From: Octopus sinensis | Taxonomy: Eukaryota | Length of the DNA: 64,000 nucleotides | Reading direction: 5' to 3' | Assembly: GCF_006345805.1 (NCBI RefSeq) | Contig: NC_043000.1 | Coordinates: 68,758,001 to 68,822,000, forward strand | Part shown: piece after piece, positions 19,501 through 29,324 of the stretch | Layout of the letters: each line of letters opens with the position of its first letter | Numbering within the stretch: position 1 is the first letter of the stretch | Program-made: the position numbers and the translations under genes | Notes under the pieces: generated by a model | The model's input: only the letters and a program-made list of their open reading frames with translations | What the model was told of the DNA's origin: nothing | Databases searched by the model: none

Positions 19501-20518
19501 TCGGTATCAATTCTCCTGTGGTGGACAGGTCTTCTTAAGTACAGCAAGGCGCCAGTATTTATTTATTGATTCCCAGCAACTGCATATATTCATTAGGATT
19601 GAGTCCCAAGACTTGTATGGACCCCTGGACAACTGTTCAGTGTCGGCGCAGCTGTACATTGATGTGAATCGCATTCATCTACAATACGTTCTTATGATTT
19701 CTGAATTTGCCCACTATTGTAAATTAATGTGGCTTTTGCACATATCTGTTCTTACACCTCTCTGTAGCTTTTACTACACATCGGCGACAATCTAGGGGCT
19801 ACTTAGGTGCCTTAGCACAGAGTAATTTTGTTGCAAGTATTTGAACCGGAAAACTGTGGTTCTTTCTCTCCCTACGTTTTTCTGCAGACATTCAGGCTGC
19901 ACATCGATTGCAACAATCAATCATGCCAACTGAGAGGACCAGCAAATATCATGGGGCCCATTCCTCTCAACCAACCAATAAAAATATGATTTGTGCGCTT
20001 ACTTCCCACTAAACATTAAATATGACATTGCCCTTCTCTTGATGTTAGACGTCAGTCTTCTGAATTCGCATGTTTCTACACACCCTTGTGATTTCTGTAT
20101 ACAGATCTATTCTTTTGCTTCTCGTTATAGCTAGATTCTCTTCAGAGCTCCTCCATTGATAGAACTTTCACACACGCACACCTTTCGTTTTCATTACCTC
20201 CGCCTTCGCCAAAGCGGTGGGATTGTTTCCAGTCGCGTTTGTTTGTTTGTTTGTTCGTGAACAAGATAGCTCAAAAACTGCTGAATGGGTTCGGATGAAA
20301 CTTTCAGGGATGTTTGGCCTCCTGACTGTCACGAACTGATTAGATTTTGAGATCGATCCGGTACCGGACAAGGATTCTGGATTATTTTTCCGTTTTTTTT
20401 TACTCAATCTTTGAGAGCTTTCGGGTTCATTTTTAGTAATCTCGTTTGCGAGAGCAGTCGATTTTTATTTCAGATATTCTCATTTTAAAAATCATCTCTG
20501 GCTAGAGGACATTGGTGT

Positions 20519-21772
20519 CTCGGAGTAACAACTTGTTTGTTTGAGTCTCGTCAATTTTGACCACGGTTGGATTGTTGAGGACTTTCTCTTTGAGACTGTC
20601 CGTTGTTAAAATTGTTTTATATTACTGTTTAAAATTATTGTTGAAGTGACTCGTGCGTAACTGGTTTTTCTTTTTCTGTTTTTCTCCCCATTGTGGGGAG
20701 CTTTTATTAGCTTTTATTATGGAAAGCTACGCAAAAACCGCTGCAGTGAGAGCTGCTACTCTGTTGGATGCAAAGCAGATAAAAATTAATATGGAAGTGA
20801 TAATAAGAAGCGAACAGTTTGTGCAAAGAGAGGGAGACACAATAAAGCTGGTCTCCCCAGAGGAGAATCCCGTATTGGGACCAGTGGGGAGAACGAGCAT
20901 GTTAAACTGGTGGGGATGCAGTGTCGAGATGTGACTTTTTGCCACTTACGAAGACATTCAGAGGATCCCCTACCAGATAGAGATCACGGGAGAAAGTTCC
21001 CCCAAATTGTTGAGGGTCGTCGACCGAATTGTTACGAATGTGGAGTGAGAGGCCATATGAGGACGCAGTGCCCCAAGCACAAGCCTGCTCAGAGTAAGAA
21101 GACTGTGGAAAAAGACCAAGAAGTGGAAATTGGAGAAAAAAATTGAAGCACTGAAATACGGAGATGGCAAAAGCGATAAGGAGTGCTCCAGAGATACAGA
21201 GGAAGTGAAGTCGAAGGAAGACTGAACGAAAGCGGCAAAGGATAGGAGTGACGGATTTGTCTGCCCCAAAAGTAGGTAAACGTCGAAATCAAAAGAACAC
21301 TCGCATGGACCAGCAGCAGAAACAGAGAGGACGCCCCCCAAGACGGTAGGGAGCCGCCTAAACTCAAGTATTCAGTAGAGACAGAACCAAGAGAGAAATA
21401 ATTTAAACATAAGGCATTCTTAGTCTACTGCGTAAAGAGTGTAGAGGTAGAAAGGAGAATAGCCAAGTGGAAGAGACTAGTAAAGATAAAGCTGCCCAGA
21501 GAGAAATTCAAGGAGAATGAAAGGTGTTTTTCTATTGAATGACGAAAGATACGACGTGTTCATGAATTCATATCGTGAATTGGTGACTGATTGACGGACC
21601 GGTGTTGTATGATACCCTGCCGCTCGTGGTGGAGTATGAAGATTTGAGAGATTTTAGACAAAAAATATATATGAACAATATAAAAAAAATTATCAAAATG
21701 TGAACTCTTTCTTTTTTTTAAAAAAAAAAGAAAACTGTCCAAAATAAGGTCTAAATGTAACTACTCGACTTC
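20519..21772 (+). mobile_element. ORF1-only (HAL1-like) Tx1/L1-related retroelement, unit 1 (internal deletion, 3' end lost)
   Basis: MESYAKTAAV start at 20719; CCHC knuckle CYECGVRGHMRTQC; homologous to units 2 and 3. Confidence 0.8.
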
Positions 21773-23540
21773 ATTTTCTTTATTTACCATATAGGTTAAA
21801 GAAACAGGGGACGATACAAGGACAGACAAACAAATAAGAGGTCGGGGATCGAATGAGATTAACAGTATAAATGATCAATTTTAAAAATTCAAATTAAAAT
21901 ACGAATGTATGATTAATAAAGTGAAGCGGAGGACGTGGTTGACCCCACAAACCACATTCTCACACTGAAGACTTCGTTTTTCCTTTTTATGCTCTCGCTT
22001 AAACAGGTTCTTTCACTCTCAACATACTTGCCACAGACTTCCATATTTTACGAAAGCCACTTTGCGACAGGCATTTCTTCTCCAGCCATATTTTTCTTTT
22101 CATGTGGAAAACGAAAAAGTTAACTAACCCAAGACTGAAGATAAAAATGCCTATCACAATCCCTTTCACTCTCGTCTTCCATACTACCTCCTTCGCAGCA
22201 GCAACTACCGAGAGAAAAGAAACCTGCTCTTCCCAATTTAGGGAGGACGGCAGAACAATCTTAATTATAGATTCGCGCGACAGTTGTACTTTTCTCGAAT
22301 GTGACAGCAAGTGTTCGACATAATAAGCCCAGAGTTCCGAAACCTTCGAGCATTGCACAATCGCATGCAGAAGTTTCACTGTCCTGCCCGCATCTTGGAC
22401 AAGCAGGCGAAGGCGCAGACCCGTGTCTAAAAAGCGTATCTCGAACAGGTAAAGTGCCTCTGTAACATTGCCATGCCAGGGACTTCTGGTAATTATTCAG
22501 AGGCCCTGGCCCAAATGTTCTTCGGTATAGGCTGGTGAGTTGAGCTTTATCGAACCCAGGGTTTCTCCCAGGACGTCGTCACACTTGAACTCTACTAACC
22601 CTCTATTGAAGGACGAGGTAGCACCCCCGCCACTACATTGCCCGACTGTGAGAGAAGCACGAGGGCCTAATGACATTCTGCATGCCACGCGCCCAACATC
22701 GGTCTACGCTTAATCCATGAGTCCAGTTCAGTAAAGGATGTGAACCGTGAAAATAACAGCTTGACGAACGGAGACCACACCTGTTCACCGTCCAGGTAAA
22801 GCCAGAGGTGCCTAAGCCTCAACGCATTTTTGGCCATGGCATCCTTATCCCACCCTTCAGTGGTTTTTGGCAGCAGATAGAGCGCCTTACAAGAGGTCCC
22901 CTGCCCCTCCACAAAAAGTGGAAGAGCATGCGTTCCAACTTGTTCAGCCACGAATCGGGACAAGGGACGACGATCAGGCGGTAGGTAATAACAAATACTA
23001 TAAACACCTCTGCGACCTCCGACCTCCCTTTCAGGGACAGCTTCCGCTCAGACCAGGTTTGAGTTAGGAGAGCAACCCCGCCCGCCACCTCGCACCACTT
23101 CTTCTTTATCTGGAAATCCGGACCTAACCAGATTTCAATGCTGTCGGACGGCATCGACTTGCCCCTCCAGGTTCCGAGTAGCAAGCTGACCGATTTATCC
23201 CGGTTAATTTTTGCTCCTGCCACCGCTTTGTAATCCCTTATGGCTTCACCTACCCACTGTAGGTGCTCGACCCGGGATACGATGACGGTGATGTCATCCG
23301 CGTATGCCGAAGCTGACTTTCCGCACCCTAGATCTTGCGGAGTGCCCCTCATAGCCTCCAACTTTCTCAGCAATGGTTCGAGGGCCAAAACGTACAAAAG
23401 CGGGGAGAGAGGGCATCGATCGTTCAATGCAGAACGGCTCCGAAAAGAAACCATTCACCTGAACTATCGATTCGCTGTCGCTGTATAAAGCAGTGGATCC
23501 ACCCACGGAAGGCCGGGCCGAAACCAGCGGCTGCAAGGAC
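21773..23540 (-). mobile_element. L1/Tx1-clade LINE, 5'-truncated ORF2 (RT C-terminal half) + 3' UTR
   Basis: VLAAAGFGPAF.GWI, CPLSPLLY, AYADD, GAKINRDKS, W..RKLSLKGR, PLKGG, HAIVQC; 3' end ...ggtaaataaagaaaa. Confidence 0.88.
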
Positions 23541-23548
23541 GTTGGTGT

Positions 23549-25320
23549 CGCAGACTAACAACTTATTTGTGTGAGTTTCGTCATTTTTGACCACGGTTTT
23601 GAATTGTTTTTACATGTTGAAGGCTTTCTCTTCGAGACTGTCTGTTATTGAAACTGTTTTTTGAAAATTATTGTTGAGCGACACGCGCGCGATTGTTTTT
23701 TGCTGTTTTCTTGCCATTGTGGGGCTGAAAAGTAACTTTTTCATTATGGAAAGTTATGCAAAAGCCGCTGCAGTGGGATCAGCTACGCCATTGGAAGCGA
23801 AACAGATAACGTTAAAAATGGAAGATGTTATAAGAAGTGAACAGTTTGTGAAAAGGGAGGGAAACGCAGTAGAGCTGGTCCCTCCAGAAGAAACGGTCGA
23901 GGATAAGAGTGATAGGACGGTGGTGTATCGCACGCAAGCGGTCGCCACCAATAAAATTGAAATCATATCAGAAGACGACGTGGAGGAATGTTTGGGATCC
24001 CTGATGAAAACGGCAACTTTCGTTGGCCGAGGAAAGAAATATGGTACGGTGGGGGTGAGGTTTGCCACCAAAGAGACGTCCTCACATTCCACCACTATTT
24101 TACCTACAGAAAAGGTTACGCTGCAGCCCACGAATAGGGGCAAGCGTAATGTTCGGATTCGAATAGTAAGAGTGCTACCAGAAATAAAGACAGAGTGGTT
24201 GGTGGCGACTGTTGTGGCTGCCACCGAGGAGAATCCCGAATTGGGATCAGTGGGAAGAACGAACACGTTAAACTGGTGGGGATGCGGTATCGGGATGTGG
24301 CTTTTTTCCACTTTCGAAGACATTGAGATAGAGATTGAGGGAGAAAGTACCCTCAAAGTAATTGTTGAGAGTCGTCGGCCGAATTGTTACGAATGTGGAG
24401 TAGAGGCCATATGAGGACGCAGTGACCCATGCACAAGCTTCCTCAGAGTGAGAAGTTTGTGGAGAAAGACCAAGAAGAAGCGGAGATTGGTGTACCAATT
24501 GATGCAATGAAAGACAGAGATGGCAAAAGCGATAAGGAGTGCGCCAGAGATACAGAGGAAGTGAAGTCGAAGGAAGACTGAACGGAAGTGGCAAAGAAAA
24601 GGAGTGACGGGTTTGTCGGCCCCAAAAAGAGGAAAAAGTCGAAATCAAGAGAACACTCGTAGGAACCAGCAGTAAAACCAAATAGGACGCCCCCCACTCC
24701 CCAGGTAGGGAGCCGCCTATTTTCAAGCATACGCAGACAGTAGAGACGGAACCAAGAGAGAAAGAATCGGTGGAAGAGAAGATAAAGCACAGGTTGGAAA
24801 ATAAAGCATACGTAATATACAAGCAAAAGGATGTAGATGTGGAAAGGAGTGATAAGGGGAAACTACCCAGGGAGAATTTTAAGGAAGAAGAAAAATGTGT
24901 AATATTGAGTGTCGATAGATACGAGACGTTCATAAATTCATATAGAAGCTATATAACTTCATTGGGTGAGCCGGTGTGGTTTGATGCCCTACCAACCGTA
25001 ATTGAATATAAAGATTTTAATTTTTTTTTTAATATGAACAATATATTAAAAAAATGATGAAGATGTGAACTTTTTAAATTATACAAAAAAAGTGTGGGGG
25101 GGGGGAGAAAATATCCCAAAAATGTCTAAATGTAACCACTCGACTTCGGAGGTTGAGTAGGTGTTGGGCCTCATTTTATCATTTTCATATTTTCATTCGT
25201 TATTTTATTTTTCATCCTTACTCGATTTCTTTTTGTATTTTTATTTCCTCGATTATGTGTTTTGTATTGTCTTTGTAATGTACAACCTCTACTTTTAGCC
25301 CCTTGTAGGTAATAAAAAAT
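23549..25320 (+). mobile_element. ORF1-only (HAL1-like) retroelement, unit 2
   Basis: ORF from ATG 23746 to ~25057 with frameshifts; CYECG..GH knuckle; ends cccttgtaggtAATAAAaaa; no RT inside. Confidence 0.82.
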
Positions 25321-25335
25321 TATAGACGTTGGTGT

Positions 25336-27016
25336 TGCAGACTATGAGTTTCGTTACTTTTGACCACGGTTTTGAATTGTTGTTGCATGCTGAGGCTTTT
25401 CTCTTCGAGGTTATCCGTTGTTGATATTGTGTCATTGTTGAGCGACTCGCGCATGATTGTTTTTGTTTCTGTTTTCTCCCAATTGTAGGGGTGAAAAGTA
25501 AGTTTTTCATTATGGAGAACTATGCAAAAACTGTTGCAGTGGGAGCGGCTGCGCCGTTGGACGCGAAACTGATAATAGTAAATGTGGAAGAGATAAGAAG
25601 AAGTGAACAGTTTGTAAAAAAGGGAGGGAAACGCAGTAAAGCTGGTCCCTCCAGAAGAAACGGTCGAGGATAAGAGTGATAGGACGGTGGTGTTACCGCA
25701 CGCAAGCGATCGCTACCAATAAAATTGAAATTCTATCAGAAAATGACGTGGGGGAATGTTTGGGACCCCTGATGAAAACGACAACTTTCGTTAGCCGAGG
25801 AAAGAAATATGGTACGGTGGAGGTGAGGTTTGCCACCAAAGAGACGGCCTCACATTCCACCACTATTTTATGCACTGAAAAGGTGACGCTGCTGCCCACG
25901 TATAGAGGCAGGCATTCGTATTGGAAGGGTGCCACCAGAAATAAAGCTAGAGTAGTTGGTGACAGCTGTTGTGGATGCCACCGAGGAGAATCCCGAATTT
26001 GAGACAGTTGGAAGAGGGAATACGGAGTCGAGATGTGGCTTTTTTCCACTTTCGAAGACATTGAAAGGATCCCCTATCAGATAGAGATTCTGGGAGAGAG
26101 ATCCCTCAAAGCGATTGTTGAGGGACGCCGACCAAATTGTTACGAATGTGGAGTGAAAGGCCACATGAAGACGCAGTGCCCCAAGCACAAGCCTCCTTGG
26201 AGTGAGAAGGCTGTGGAGAGGGATCAAGAAGTGGAGATTGGAGTACCAAGTGAAGCAATAAAAGACGGAGTCGGCAAAAGCGATATGGAGTGCACTAGGG
26301 ATACGGAAGAGATGAAACCGAAGAAAGACAGAACGAAAGCGGCAAATGAGGGGAGTGACGGGTTTGTCAGCCCCAAAAGGAGGAAAGAGGCTAAAGCAAG
26401 AGAACACTCGAAGGGACCAGTAGGACGCTCAAAAAAGGTAGGTAACCGCCTATCTTCAAACATACGCAGACAGTAGAGACAGAACCAAAAGCGAGAGAAT
26501 CAGTAGAAGAGAATGTACAACACGTTTTAGAAATAAGGCATTCATAGTATACTAGGAAAAGAATGTAGATGTGGACAGGAGGATTTCCAAGTGGAAGGGA
26601 TTAATAAGGGTGAAACTGCCTAGGGAGGATTTCAATGAAGAACAGAAGTGTGTAGTATTGAATGAGGATAGATACGACACATTTATAAAAACATATAGAA
26701 AGTATTTCATTTCATTTGGCGGGCCAGTGTGGTTTGATGCTCTACCAACCGTAATTCAACATAAAGAGCTGAAAAGCCTAAAAAACTATGAACAATTAAA
26801 AAAAAAAGGAAAAACAAAACTGTTCAAAATAACGTGTAATGTAACCACTGGATTTCGAGGGTCGAGTGCGCATTGCGCTCATTTTATCATTTTCATTCGT
26901 TCTTTTTATTTTTCTTCTTCACTCGATTTCTTTCTGTATTTTATTTCCCCGAGTATGTGTCCTGTATTGTTTTGTAATGTCCCATCTATGTTTGGCCCCT
27001 TGTAGGTAATAAAAAA
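25336..27016 (+). mobile_element. ORF1-only (HAL1-like) retroelement, unit 3
   Basis: ATG 25512; CYECGVKGHMKTQC; same 3' end cccttgtaggtAATAAAaaa. Confidence 0.82.
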
Positions 27017-27389
27017 TCGGGACGTTGGTGTTGCCTTGGCGGAGGTTTGCGCTCTCTGAGTGCTCTTGTTTGCATTGGTGTTTATTTTTACCGTATATGG
27101 ATTATATTCTTAAACATTTTCCTTTACCTATTCAACGTCCCCCTCCGCCTTTTTTTTTCAAGTGTACTTACATGTAATATCAGGCTGGAGTAATTTAGTT
27201 CCGGGTGCTAGTTTGAGGTGTCTACTTACCAAAGTACCACCCGACGAGTATCTCATGCACACTCTCTTGACCTCGTTTCGACTAACTTTAGGTACATATT
27301 CTGTGTGCTTCACAATATCCCCTCTAGCTACTATTTGAAGTTTATCGTTACATTCTGATTTACAGTTGTCTTACCTCTATATTTACATT

Positions 27390-27624: not shown

Positions 27625-28055
27625 ACACTATGCACGTGCATCACAACCATATGTGTGCAACCTGGTGATCTGTGGGGCCCAGTTAGAATTTTGTTCAGGT
27701 CGAGTAGCCCATCCCGCTCAAAAGGTCCCTGACTAAGGATTGTTTGGGGATGTTGAACGAAACATTCATGTTTCCGTAGGTGAATTATTCAAACGCCAAA
27801 ATATTCCTCTCAATGTCGTATCTGTGATGCTTCCCAGCTACTTCTGCTTGTGATCAGAGAAGTACAAATCGTCATCCACCAAGGGACATACTCAACTGAT
27901 TAAGGTCAATCAAGTGACAAGCAAATCTGTGGTATTAAGCAGAATATTTGCTGTAGCCCATTTTTTAATACCAGGACAAAATATGTGCGTGATAACACTT
28001 CTAATCAGTTATGATCAAAAGCCATGAGAGCCACTGCCTGGTACTGCATCAAGGC

Positions 28056-28057
<2 letters not shown>
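27625..28057 (-). mobile_element. Unclassified short retroposon-like repeat (family D), copy 1
   Basis: Homologous to 28270-28716; ends at the (TAT)n tract. Confidence 0.7.
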
Positions 28058-28101
<44 letters not shown>

Positions 28102-28194
28102 GTTATTATTATTGTTATTATTATTATTGTTATTATTATTACTGTTATTATTATTATTGTTATTATTGTTATTATTATTATTGTTGTTGTTGTT
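28058..28194. repeat. (TAT)n/(TGT)n trinucleotide repeat
   Basis: Direct inspection. Confidence 0.95.
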
Positions 28195-28716
28195 GAGTGA
28201 GAGAGCGGTGCATGCCGTCAAAGTGACACTGGGATAAAATATACGGAGCCAAGTATACCCATCATGACTACCCATCACATGCGTCACAACAATATTTGCG
28301 CGACATGGTGATCTCATATCAAGATAACTGCGGTGAGGCCCAGTTAGCATTTTCTTCAGGTCGAGTGGCCCATCCTATTCAAAGATCCTTGAATAAGGAT
28401 TGTTTAAGGATATTGAACGAAACACCCATTATTTCAGAGGTGAATTATTCAAACCCCACAAAATTCCTCTCAACACATGGCTATGATGCTCCCCCACTAC
28501 TTCTGTTTGTGATTAGAGATGCACATATCATCAGCCACTAAGGGACATGCTCAACTGGTTATGGTCAAACAAATGACAAGCAAATCTGTGGTATTGAGCA
28601 GAATATTTACTGTAGCCCATCTTTTATACCAAGACAAAACAATGTACATGATAACACTTCCAGTCAGTTAAGATCAGAAGCCACGAGAGCCACTGTCTAG
28701 TATTGCATCAGGGCGT
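28195..28716 (-). mobile_element. Unclassified short retroposon-like repeat (family D), copy 2, apparently full length
   Basis: Bounded by TAA/CAA-type triplets on both sides; homologous to copy 1. Confidence 0.7.
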
Positions 28717-29324
28717 TTATTATGTGAAGAGTAGACTTATTATTTACTTTCCTGGATTCAAATGCTGTTTCATTCAATCAGACATAGCTCTTTTCATTAT
28801 TCTAAGTTTGATAACGAAGTACCATTATCCAAGATAAATAAGTTTTAAATAGAAAATTAGTTGAGTGGGGTACCAGCGCGTGTGTTTTGAGTTCAAATCT
28901 AGTGCATGAGTACGTTATCTCTTTGAGCATTTTATTTTATATCTCGATTAATCTGGACTGTTAGGAATAAGCATGAACTCTGGAAATGTTACCAGCAATA
29001 AACATTGGTAAACTATCAAGACATAAATTTATCTTTACTTGAAACAAAAGTGAAGAGCAGACTGTATAACGAAGGAACCTCTACTTGGTCGAACAACTCG
29101 CTAGAAATAGCAACCAAATTTCTCTCAGATCATATCCTACTATCTTTAAAAAGGAAGAGCATTGAATAATGTTGGTATTATGTCTGGAACAAAAAATGAG
29201 ATGTCTACAAATACCTTGACCACTCGATCTGAACTGACGTGATTTTTCTAAACGAAAACAAGTTCGTTAGCCATTAATAGATAGCATTTACATTTGTATT
29301 TCGAAGTATATCGTTTGATATATA

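Follow-up and report, generated by a model that had tools for sequence, protein, structure and literature searches.

The closest described systems combine parts of what we report here. In crocodilians, the short interspersed element (SINE) SINEU-3 is mobilised by Tx1-Mar, with 90% of copies flanked by Mariner-N4, and its tandem insertions enclose a 16-bp duplication that was interpreted as a sign of sequential insertion (PMC4494074). In Xenopus, Tx1L inserts into Tx1D (PMC1950540, PMC6719617). Other long interspersed elements (LINEs) have derivatives that keep only the first open reading frame (ORF1), such as HAL1, an ORF1p-only, non-autonomous derivative of mammalian L1 (PMC5753468). ORF1-only telomeric Jockey elements are widespread in Drosophila, where such lineages spawn further lineages (PMC13534243). 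In two Drosophila species, no telomeric ORF2 source was found for these telomeric elements, and the HeT-A Gag targets TAHRE particles (PMC6719617, PMC13534243). For octopuses, a repeat annotation of O. vulgaris lists L1-Tx1 families (PMC13282606). We analyzed a stretch of 64,000 nucleotides from Octopus sinensis (NC_043000.1, positions 68,758,001 to 68,822,000; hereafter the window), in which ORF1-only units of Tx1 type are stacked inside an element resembling HINEs, and we searched 2.72 Gb of genome for related copies.

We conclude, with a probability of about 0.85, that the stack represents three independently inserted, dead copies of an ORF1-only Tx1 derivative at one fixed HINE site. Target-primed reverse transcription most likely inserted them, using the borrowed ORF2 protein of a different Tx1 element. 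A sequence-only reading of the window had proposed successive insertion of an ORF1-only, target-specific retroposon, a mechanism that holds with this same confidence.

The stack and its target site

Three units of one family (family A) lie head to tail between two arms of the HINE-like element, all on the forward strand. The left arm (20190 to 20506) comprises a 5' subterminal repeat with a nested inverted repeat, a (GTTT)n tract and a core. The right arm (27032 to 27070) consists of the 3' subterminal repeat CCTTGGCGGAGGT, a short 3' palindrome and a TT end, with loose ends at 27070-27071. The motif GGACRTTGGTGT matched the window seven times with at most one mismatch, against 0.37 matches expected by chance. 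Three of the seven fall inside ORF1s, while the remaining four, all on the forward strand, are the junctions: 20507 to 20518 (GGACATTGGTGT), 23537 to 23548, 25324 to 25335 (AGACGTTGGTGT, one mismatch) and 27020 to 27031. Every unit start and the final junction do therefore carry the motif, as had been claimed.

Unit 1 (20519 to 21772, ORF1 from 20719), recognized by BLAST and zf-CCHC, has an internal deletion of about 340 bp and lacks the final 175 bp or so of its 3' end. Unit 2 (23549 to 25323, ORF1 from 23746, AATAAA at 25311) and unit 3 (25336 to 27019, ORF1 from 25512, AATAAA at 27008) are full length, and both finish in CCCTTGTAGGTAATAAAAAA plus 3-4 nucleotides, followed by the motif. The three are 70-76% identical by BLAST, and ORF1 is broken in all of them. 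Pfam zf-CCHC scored above its cut-off in units 1 and 3, and a frameshift cuts the knuckle of unit 2. The sequence-only reading had overlooked that the stack is not made of ORF1-only DNA throughout: a 5'-truncated ORF2 fragment of autonomous Tx1 type lies antisense at 21773 to 23536 (reverse strand, 1.76 kb), with a reverse transcriptase domain (RVT_1, E 5e-9), a zf-RVT match under the Pfam cut-off, a 3' untranslated region (UTR) and AATAAAGAAA. This fragment occupies the place of the 3' end of unit 1, meets the second motif copy through a 4-nucleotide microhomology (GTCC) and is 79-83% identical to an abundant family whose copies mostly end in AATAAAGAAA and then (TC)n. These features fit a later insertion, with target deletion, into the 3' end of unit 1. 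Contigs from three other studies span each of the HINE/unit 1, unit 1/ORF2 and unit 2/unit 3 junctions, which indicates that the window junctions are not assembly artefacts.

Removal of the insert rejoins the two HINE halves, as had been proposed; the arms match a HINE found empty elsewhere, save for an 8-bp deletion immediately left of the first motif. The left arm is 84-89% identical to 29 other genomic copies, none of which holds a unit, and at 27 of these 29 loci a single motif lies between the arms. Since the motif is single in empty copies and repeated at every junction of filled ones, it belongs to the HINE-like host and not to the inserted unit. The possibility that it is the unit's own 5' end was also checked through copies inserted elsewhere, which do not have it. 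Genome-wide, we counted 627 exact empty target sites and found the filled 3' pattern at 35 places, of which one proved to be a deleted but empty HINE. The site lies 2 nucleotides upstream of the 3' subterminal repeat, so that insertion leaves both ends of the host intact.

HINE/DINE-1 elements are described as noncoding, with subterminal inverted repeats, a nested 5' inverted repeat, a microsatellite and T-rich flanks (PMC4067079). Our host, likewise without coding capacity, shares the subterminal and nested 5' inverted repeats and a microsatellite, has ends that look T-rich, and differs from that description in that its subterminal repeats match perfectly over 9 bp (PMC4067079). Most copies carry ACCTCCGCC near the 5' end and GGCGGAGGT near the 3' end, begin after TT and end in TT; the element has a (GTTT)n tract, and the nested 5' repeat forms a predicted hairpin (z -4.5 in the copy at L035). 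At the 3' end of the window copy a 6-bp stem is predicted, but shuffled sequences fold about equally well (z -0.08 and -0.91). Helitron_like_N was matched by all 150 scored Rep candidates and the genome is rich in Helitron-like Rep genes. Because the 3' stem-loop is not significant and no autonomous partner is linked, we use "HINE-like" as a label, which these features support.

The other copies were gathered by homology and not via the motif. Three ORF1-only families (A, B and C), with ORF1s about 30% alike and dozens of copies, use this one HINE site genome-wide. Families B and C were recognized as array neighbors, and a window ORF1 is 32% identical to a B ORF1. The motif follows the tail in 22/29 cases in the family A search, a count that includes the window's own two tails and four tails of other families, and in 25/29 in the family B search; as expected, intact tails mostly end at the motif. 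Two of the seven misses in the A search were judged by eye to lie at the HINE with a small deletion. In mixed arrays the motif stands at each junction, with the orders B-A (L145, L242), B-B-B (L131), A-A-A (L146) and, at L147, several B followed by C and finally A. Copies inserted off the HINE (L028, L192, L202, L225) are without the motif, have their own local duplications of 14-21 bp and form separate subclades in both A and B. The proposed non-autonomous, target-specific family that stacks at a regenerated site is supported by these data, with the correction that several families share the site and some sublineages use other targets.

The retention of both ends by filled HINEs, with the site just inside the 3' subterminal repeat, in a genome with many Helitron-like Rep genes, would also suit units that are the cargo of a composite HINE, one or a few insertions having been multiplied as the Helentron transposed by the rolling-circle route. 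The handful of filled pairs that are nearly identical (L012/L013, L208/L209) point the same way. We nevertheless consider this very unlikely. Filled left arms average 84% identity, with a maximum of 91%, and each is nearest an empty arm (28 loci, of which three are by eye empty with a damaged right arm; the empty set consists of best hits, which favors this nearest-empty result). Furthermore, arrays vary in family content and order, and 5'-truncated and off-target copies carry duplications of their own.

With respect to array order, A follows B in four cases (L145, L010, L184, L242) and C in one (L147). No A-then-B order was seen in a loosely filtered junction list, which contains many chance hits and few cases. 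A C-related ORF1-only lineage (L217, L220, L224) has inserted at a single position within the head of a very abundant SINE, and inside a filled HINE at L127 (2666-5943) about 40 repeats of a 68-bp stretch of B-family ORF1 make up a minisatellite.

Loss of ORF2, selection on ORF1 and independent insertion

The units encode no ORF2 with an APE endonuclease and reverse transcriptase. Same-strand ORF2 similarity was found within 1 kb upstream at only one of 69 distinct junctions (52 terminal and 17 internal, from a strict filter that drops some true junctions), and all six autonomous controls were detected. Copies elsewhere do not, therefore, normally continue into ORF2. The sole exception (L137) is a chimera in which an ORF2 piece of an (ATC)n-ending Tx1 is fused to the end and tail of a B ORF1, and it may reflect a template switch or an insertion with deletion. 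A weak search for longer proteins (430-2000 amino acids) containing the B ORF1 gave none. Among the 61 junctions with a scorable AATWAA signal (69 examined), 60 have the motif 6-10 nucleotides past it, with a mode of 8. The 3' end is thus fixed, with no variable poly(A). Both target-site duplication and 5' truncation are present among the unit copies.

Variation among copies separates the source lineages from their offspring. The ratio of non-synonymous to synonymous changes is 0.92-1.71 for private variants and 0.17-0.49 for variants found in at least three copies (Fisher p 2e-3 to 4e-17). These counts were made column-wise with CpG columns removed, for transitions and transversions, over 31 copies and 321 codons in family A and 38 copies and 292 codons in family B. 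In shifted reading frames the pattern is reversed and stops are present. A low ratio in shared variants and a ratio near 1 in private ones indicate that the source lineages needed ORF1: they kept it under purifying selection, and the copies decayed after insertion. The comparison of substitution ratios suggested in the sequence-only reading has, in this way, come out in favor of a selected ORF1.

This bears on the alternative that an autonomous Tx1 left dead-on-arrival deletion products, each copy losing ORF2 separately, in place of a propagating ORF1-only lineage. No intact source copy was found and internally deleted copies are common, as such an origin would have it. However, one layout from ORF1 to 3' UTR recurs across all subfamilies of A, B and C, and the shared variants are under selection. 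Moreover, we examined an ORF1 tree that is noisy (150 rows with degraded copies, 16 of which lacked enough downstream DNA for classification). The 20 ORF1s in it that have an endonuclease behind them cluster with one another and with four further rows, two on long branches and two in which no endonuclease was detected; none of the 20 falls within A, B, C or the fourth family, D. We find copy-by-copy loss scarcely credible.

Local tandem duplication, or unequal crossing-over between motif copies, could also build an array, and it does occur elsewhere, in a 99% identical pair (L185) and an array of 96-98% identity (L250). For the window it is refuted, leaving it a negligible chance overall. In the trimmed alignment the similarity among the three units is 77-83%, and as neighbors of one another they rank only 6th to 25th; the approximately unbiased (AU) test rejects them as one clade (p 9.5e-5; 31 copies with at least 950 matched bases, of 43 catalogued A units). 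They are not, then, each other's closest relatives. Site-specific recombination of a circular form through an element-borne 12-bp core would account for the fixed 3' end without poly(A) and for one short motif at all junctions, but we hold it very unlikely, since off-target copies have local duplications and no motif, 5' truncation is common, ORF1 is Tx1-like and no recombinase is encoded.

The array at L250 (2000-8950) consists of four ORF1-only units of family D with AGCTGGCTCCAAGCTAT at each 3' junction, and its uniformity suggests recent local duplication, recent activity or an assembly repeat.

Independent insertion of ORF1-only units thus remains our explanation, and several observations weigh against it. 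All copies are 5-20% decayed, so that activity cannot be demonstrated; terminal branches have a median of 0.098 changes per site, indicating that the burst is old. The 99% identical pair, from family B, and the 96-98% identical array of another family imply that some arrays arose by local duplication. Five tails in the A search finish off target, and in the C search the motif was at the tail end in only 9 of 24 cases, the others being more distant lineages with other targets or none. The duplication at the HINE measures 12-17 bp; its edges are ambiguous, since the last bases of the units are (G)AG and their 5' ends look like the sequence that continues the target. Finally, no autonomous Tx1 was found at the HINE site with 3' and 5' junction patterns and the 3' ends of three autonomous groups, although exact junction patterns recover only part of the decayed junctions and so do not show that a helper is absent. 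The 5' end pattern of one of these groups, T3, gave no match at the site.

ORF1 anatomy and the source of ORF2

The unit ORF1 is 33% identical over 134 amino acids (E 3e-23) to the ORF1 of a full-length APE-RT (reverse transcriptase) Tx1 in the same genome. It has no Pfam match to the L1 ORF1p families, and its nearest relatives are the Tx1-like ORF1s of this genome. We regard the Tx1 assignment as probable on the basis of architecture (ORF1 CCHC, APE, RVT_1, zf-RVT) and target specificity. In unit 2 the parts of ORF1 are two predicted RRM-like domains, the CCHC knuckle, a charged linker and a C-terminal domain near 24820-25030; in unit 3 the latter lies near 26560-26775. The structural model has two beta-alpha-beta-beta-alpha-beta domains before the knuckle, which align with RRM and ferredoxin-like folds at Z 6-7.8 (mean predicted local distance difference test score, pLDDT, of 62; core 70-83).

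The C-terminal domain, of about 80 amino acids after the charged linker, is common to A and B and has a predicted ferredoxin-like fold (pLDDT 81). It has no sequence match in Pfam or the Protein Data Bank (PDB), and its fold matches are limited to generic ferredoxin-like ones (best Z 6.4, root mean square deviation 3.5, 72 residues aligned). It was not detected in the loci of the (TC)n family. We first read this domain as exclusive to ORF1-only units, a view undercut by the autonomous T3 ORF1, in which a conserved segment sits at the corresponding position and resembles the domain weakly at the profile level. The hhalign comparison gave E 0.049 and a score of 14.3, against 8.2 +/- 1.4 and a maximum of 11.8 in 40 shuffles; in a single-sequence comparison the probability was 0.3%.

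Several annotated Octopus proteins, named "CCHC-type" or uncharacterised, turn out to be ORF1s of these elements (P0007, P0009, P0010, P0013, P0015, P0025). In P0025 the ORF1 piece interrupts another gene model, which we take to be an RGS-domain gene. Where organisms were named for related annotated proteins, they were Octopus bimaculoides or O. sinensis (2/5; 9/10 looked up of 23).

Insertion could have proceeded as follows. A source copy would be transcribed to a fixed 3' end some 8-10 nucleotides past AATAAA and would make its own ORF1 protein. The endonuclease of a helper would nick the bottom strand at GAGA/GGAC, where the terminal (G)AGG of the RNA can pair with the primer, and a second nick 12-17 nucleotides downstream would lead to duplication of the target site. 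The duplicate would offer a fresh target, so that mixed arrays of A, B and C would build up immediately before the 3' subterminal repeat while both HINE ends stay intact. Later, an unrelated (TC)n-type Tx1 would have entered the 3' UTR of unit 1 in antisense orientation, deleting about 175 bp.

As to the helper, the genome holds three autonomous Tx1 groups, ending in (TC)n, ending in (ATC)n, and the low-copy T3. Copies of T3 end at fixed sites of other repeats and also occur in tandem. In mixed arrays, T3 and ORF1-only B-like units share junction sequences (L249/L273, L311, L319, L320). These arrays show passenger and helper paired at other targets, and they make T3-type elements the likeliest candidates for the helper at the HINE site. 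We lean, with some reservation, toward a now rare or lost lineage of this low-copy, target-specific group. One of the abundant microsatellite-targeting Tx1 families seems to us an unlikely, if conceivable, source. The window's own antisense ORF2 was considered as the helper and rejected, because its family ends in (TC)n at most of 29 other loci.

With no helper found at the site, either its lineage has become scarce or has disappeared, or the passengers redirect a helper of some other kind. The latter idea, which we hold doubtful, is that an old octopus radiation of ORF1-only Tx1 parasites has the passenger choosing the target, and not the helper endonuclease alone. The borrowed ORF2p might then be steered by the conserved ferredoxin-like domain at the C terminus of ORF1p, or else by the fixed 3' end of the RNA. 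This idea draws on the convergence of A, B and C on the HINE site without an autonomous Tx1, and on close sublineages that switch repeats. A precedent would be the HeT-A Gag, which steers TAHRE at the telomere, whereas the target here would be a DNA sequence. If passengers do redirect a helper, this would bear on the retargeting of site-specific retrotransposons.

A T3 subgroup (L329, L331, L335, L340, L344, L345) ends at CAGCTAGCAAGCC, upstream of a CTGATGA...GAAAC stretch that resembles a hammerhead ribozyme as in Penelope-type repeats; three of the loci were scanned with Rfam, without confirmation. Young autonomous Tx1 copies are also present. One set (L153-L165) ends in (TC)n, is 90-98% alike and has a long open ORF2 (859 amino acids in L155), and another near-identical set (L346-L353) has a different tail. 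A very abundant SINE (L003, L022, L026, L039, L104, L111, L326 and others), the one whose head receives the C-related lineage, shares the last 40 or so bases of family A and is often tandem, with its tail joined to GGTATTTCG of another copy's head. The shared end and the tail-head joins suggest that this SINE is mobilised by Tx1, and it may be site-specific too. Downstream of the stack, the window contains two copies of another repeat (27721-28064 and 28381-28723), about 83% alike and 660 bp apart, with a (TTA)n/(TTG)n tract (28058-28195) between them.

Comparison with known systems

We found no report of an ORF1-only, sequence-specific Tx1 in the literature searched, with Repbase, Dfam and most subscription papers outside that search. 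The text and one supplement of the O. vulgaris annotation make no mention of ORF1, Helentrons or targets, and its consensus library may hold these families (PMC13282606). The setting is a lineage with poorly curated repeats. Its arrays preserve the order of insertion, and together they offer a natural series of targets, passengers and candidate helpers with which to ask how LINE targets are chosen in trans.

In behavior, the closest match is SINEU-3. Like our units, it is a non-autonomous Tx1 passenger that stacks in tandem at a fixed site in an abundant non-autonomous DNA transposon (PMC4494074). It differs in being a non-coding derivative of small nuclear RNA whose helper shares its target, whereas the units here have a selected ORF1, a HINE-like host and no helper found (PMC4494074). 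Tx1L in Tx1D and the fish elements Kibi and Koshi share sequence-specific Tx1-clade insertion into a transposon or microsatellite, and the abundant Tx1 of this genome ends in (TC)n as Kibi does; these elements are, however, autonomous with a specific endonuclease of their own, and our units have none (PMC4494074, PMC1950540, PMC6719617). HeT-A resembles the units in being ORF1-only, in relying on the ORF2 of another family and in forming mixed head-to-tail arrays, but it belongs to the Jockey clade and to chromosome ends, in contrast to Tx1-clade units at a sequence-targeted, internal, duplicated site (PMC6719617, PMC13534243). The unit copies lie at interstitial positions of many large contigs, with HINE arms on either side. 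We know of no sequence-specific targeting or stacking by HAL1. Like HAL1, the units are ORF1-only and keep ORF1 under selection; HAL1 derives from L1, while the units are Tx1-derived, site-specific and without variable poly(A) (PMC5753468). Each ingredient is therefore known, from HAL1, HeT-A and Tx1-Mar/SINEU-3, and we did not find the combination described. The octopus units would extend the strategy of HAL1 and HeT-A, which keep ORF1 and borrow ORF2, to the Tx1 clade and to sequence-specific interstitial targets.

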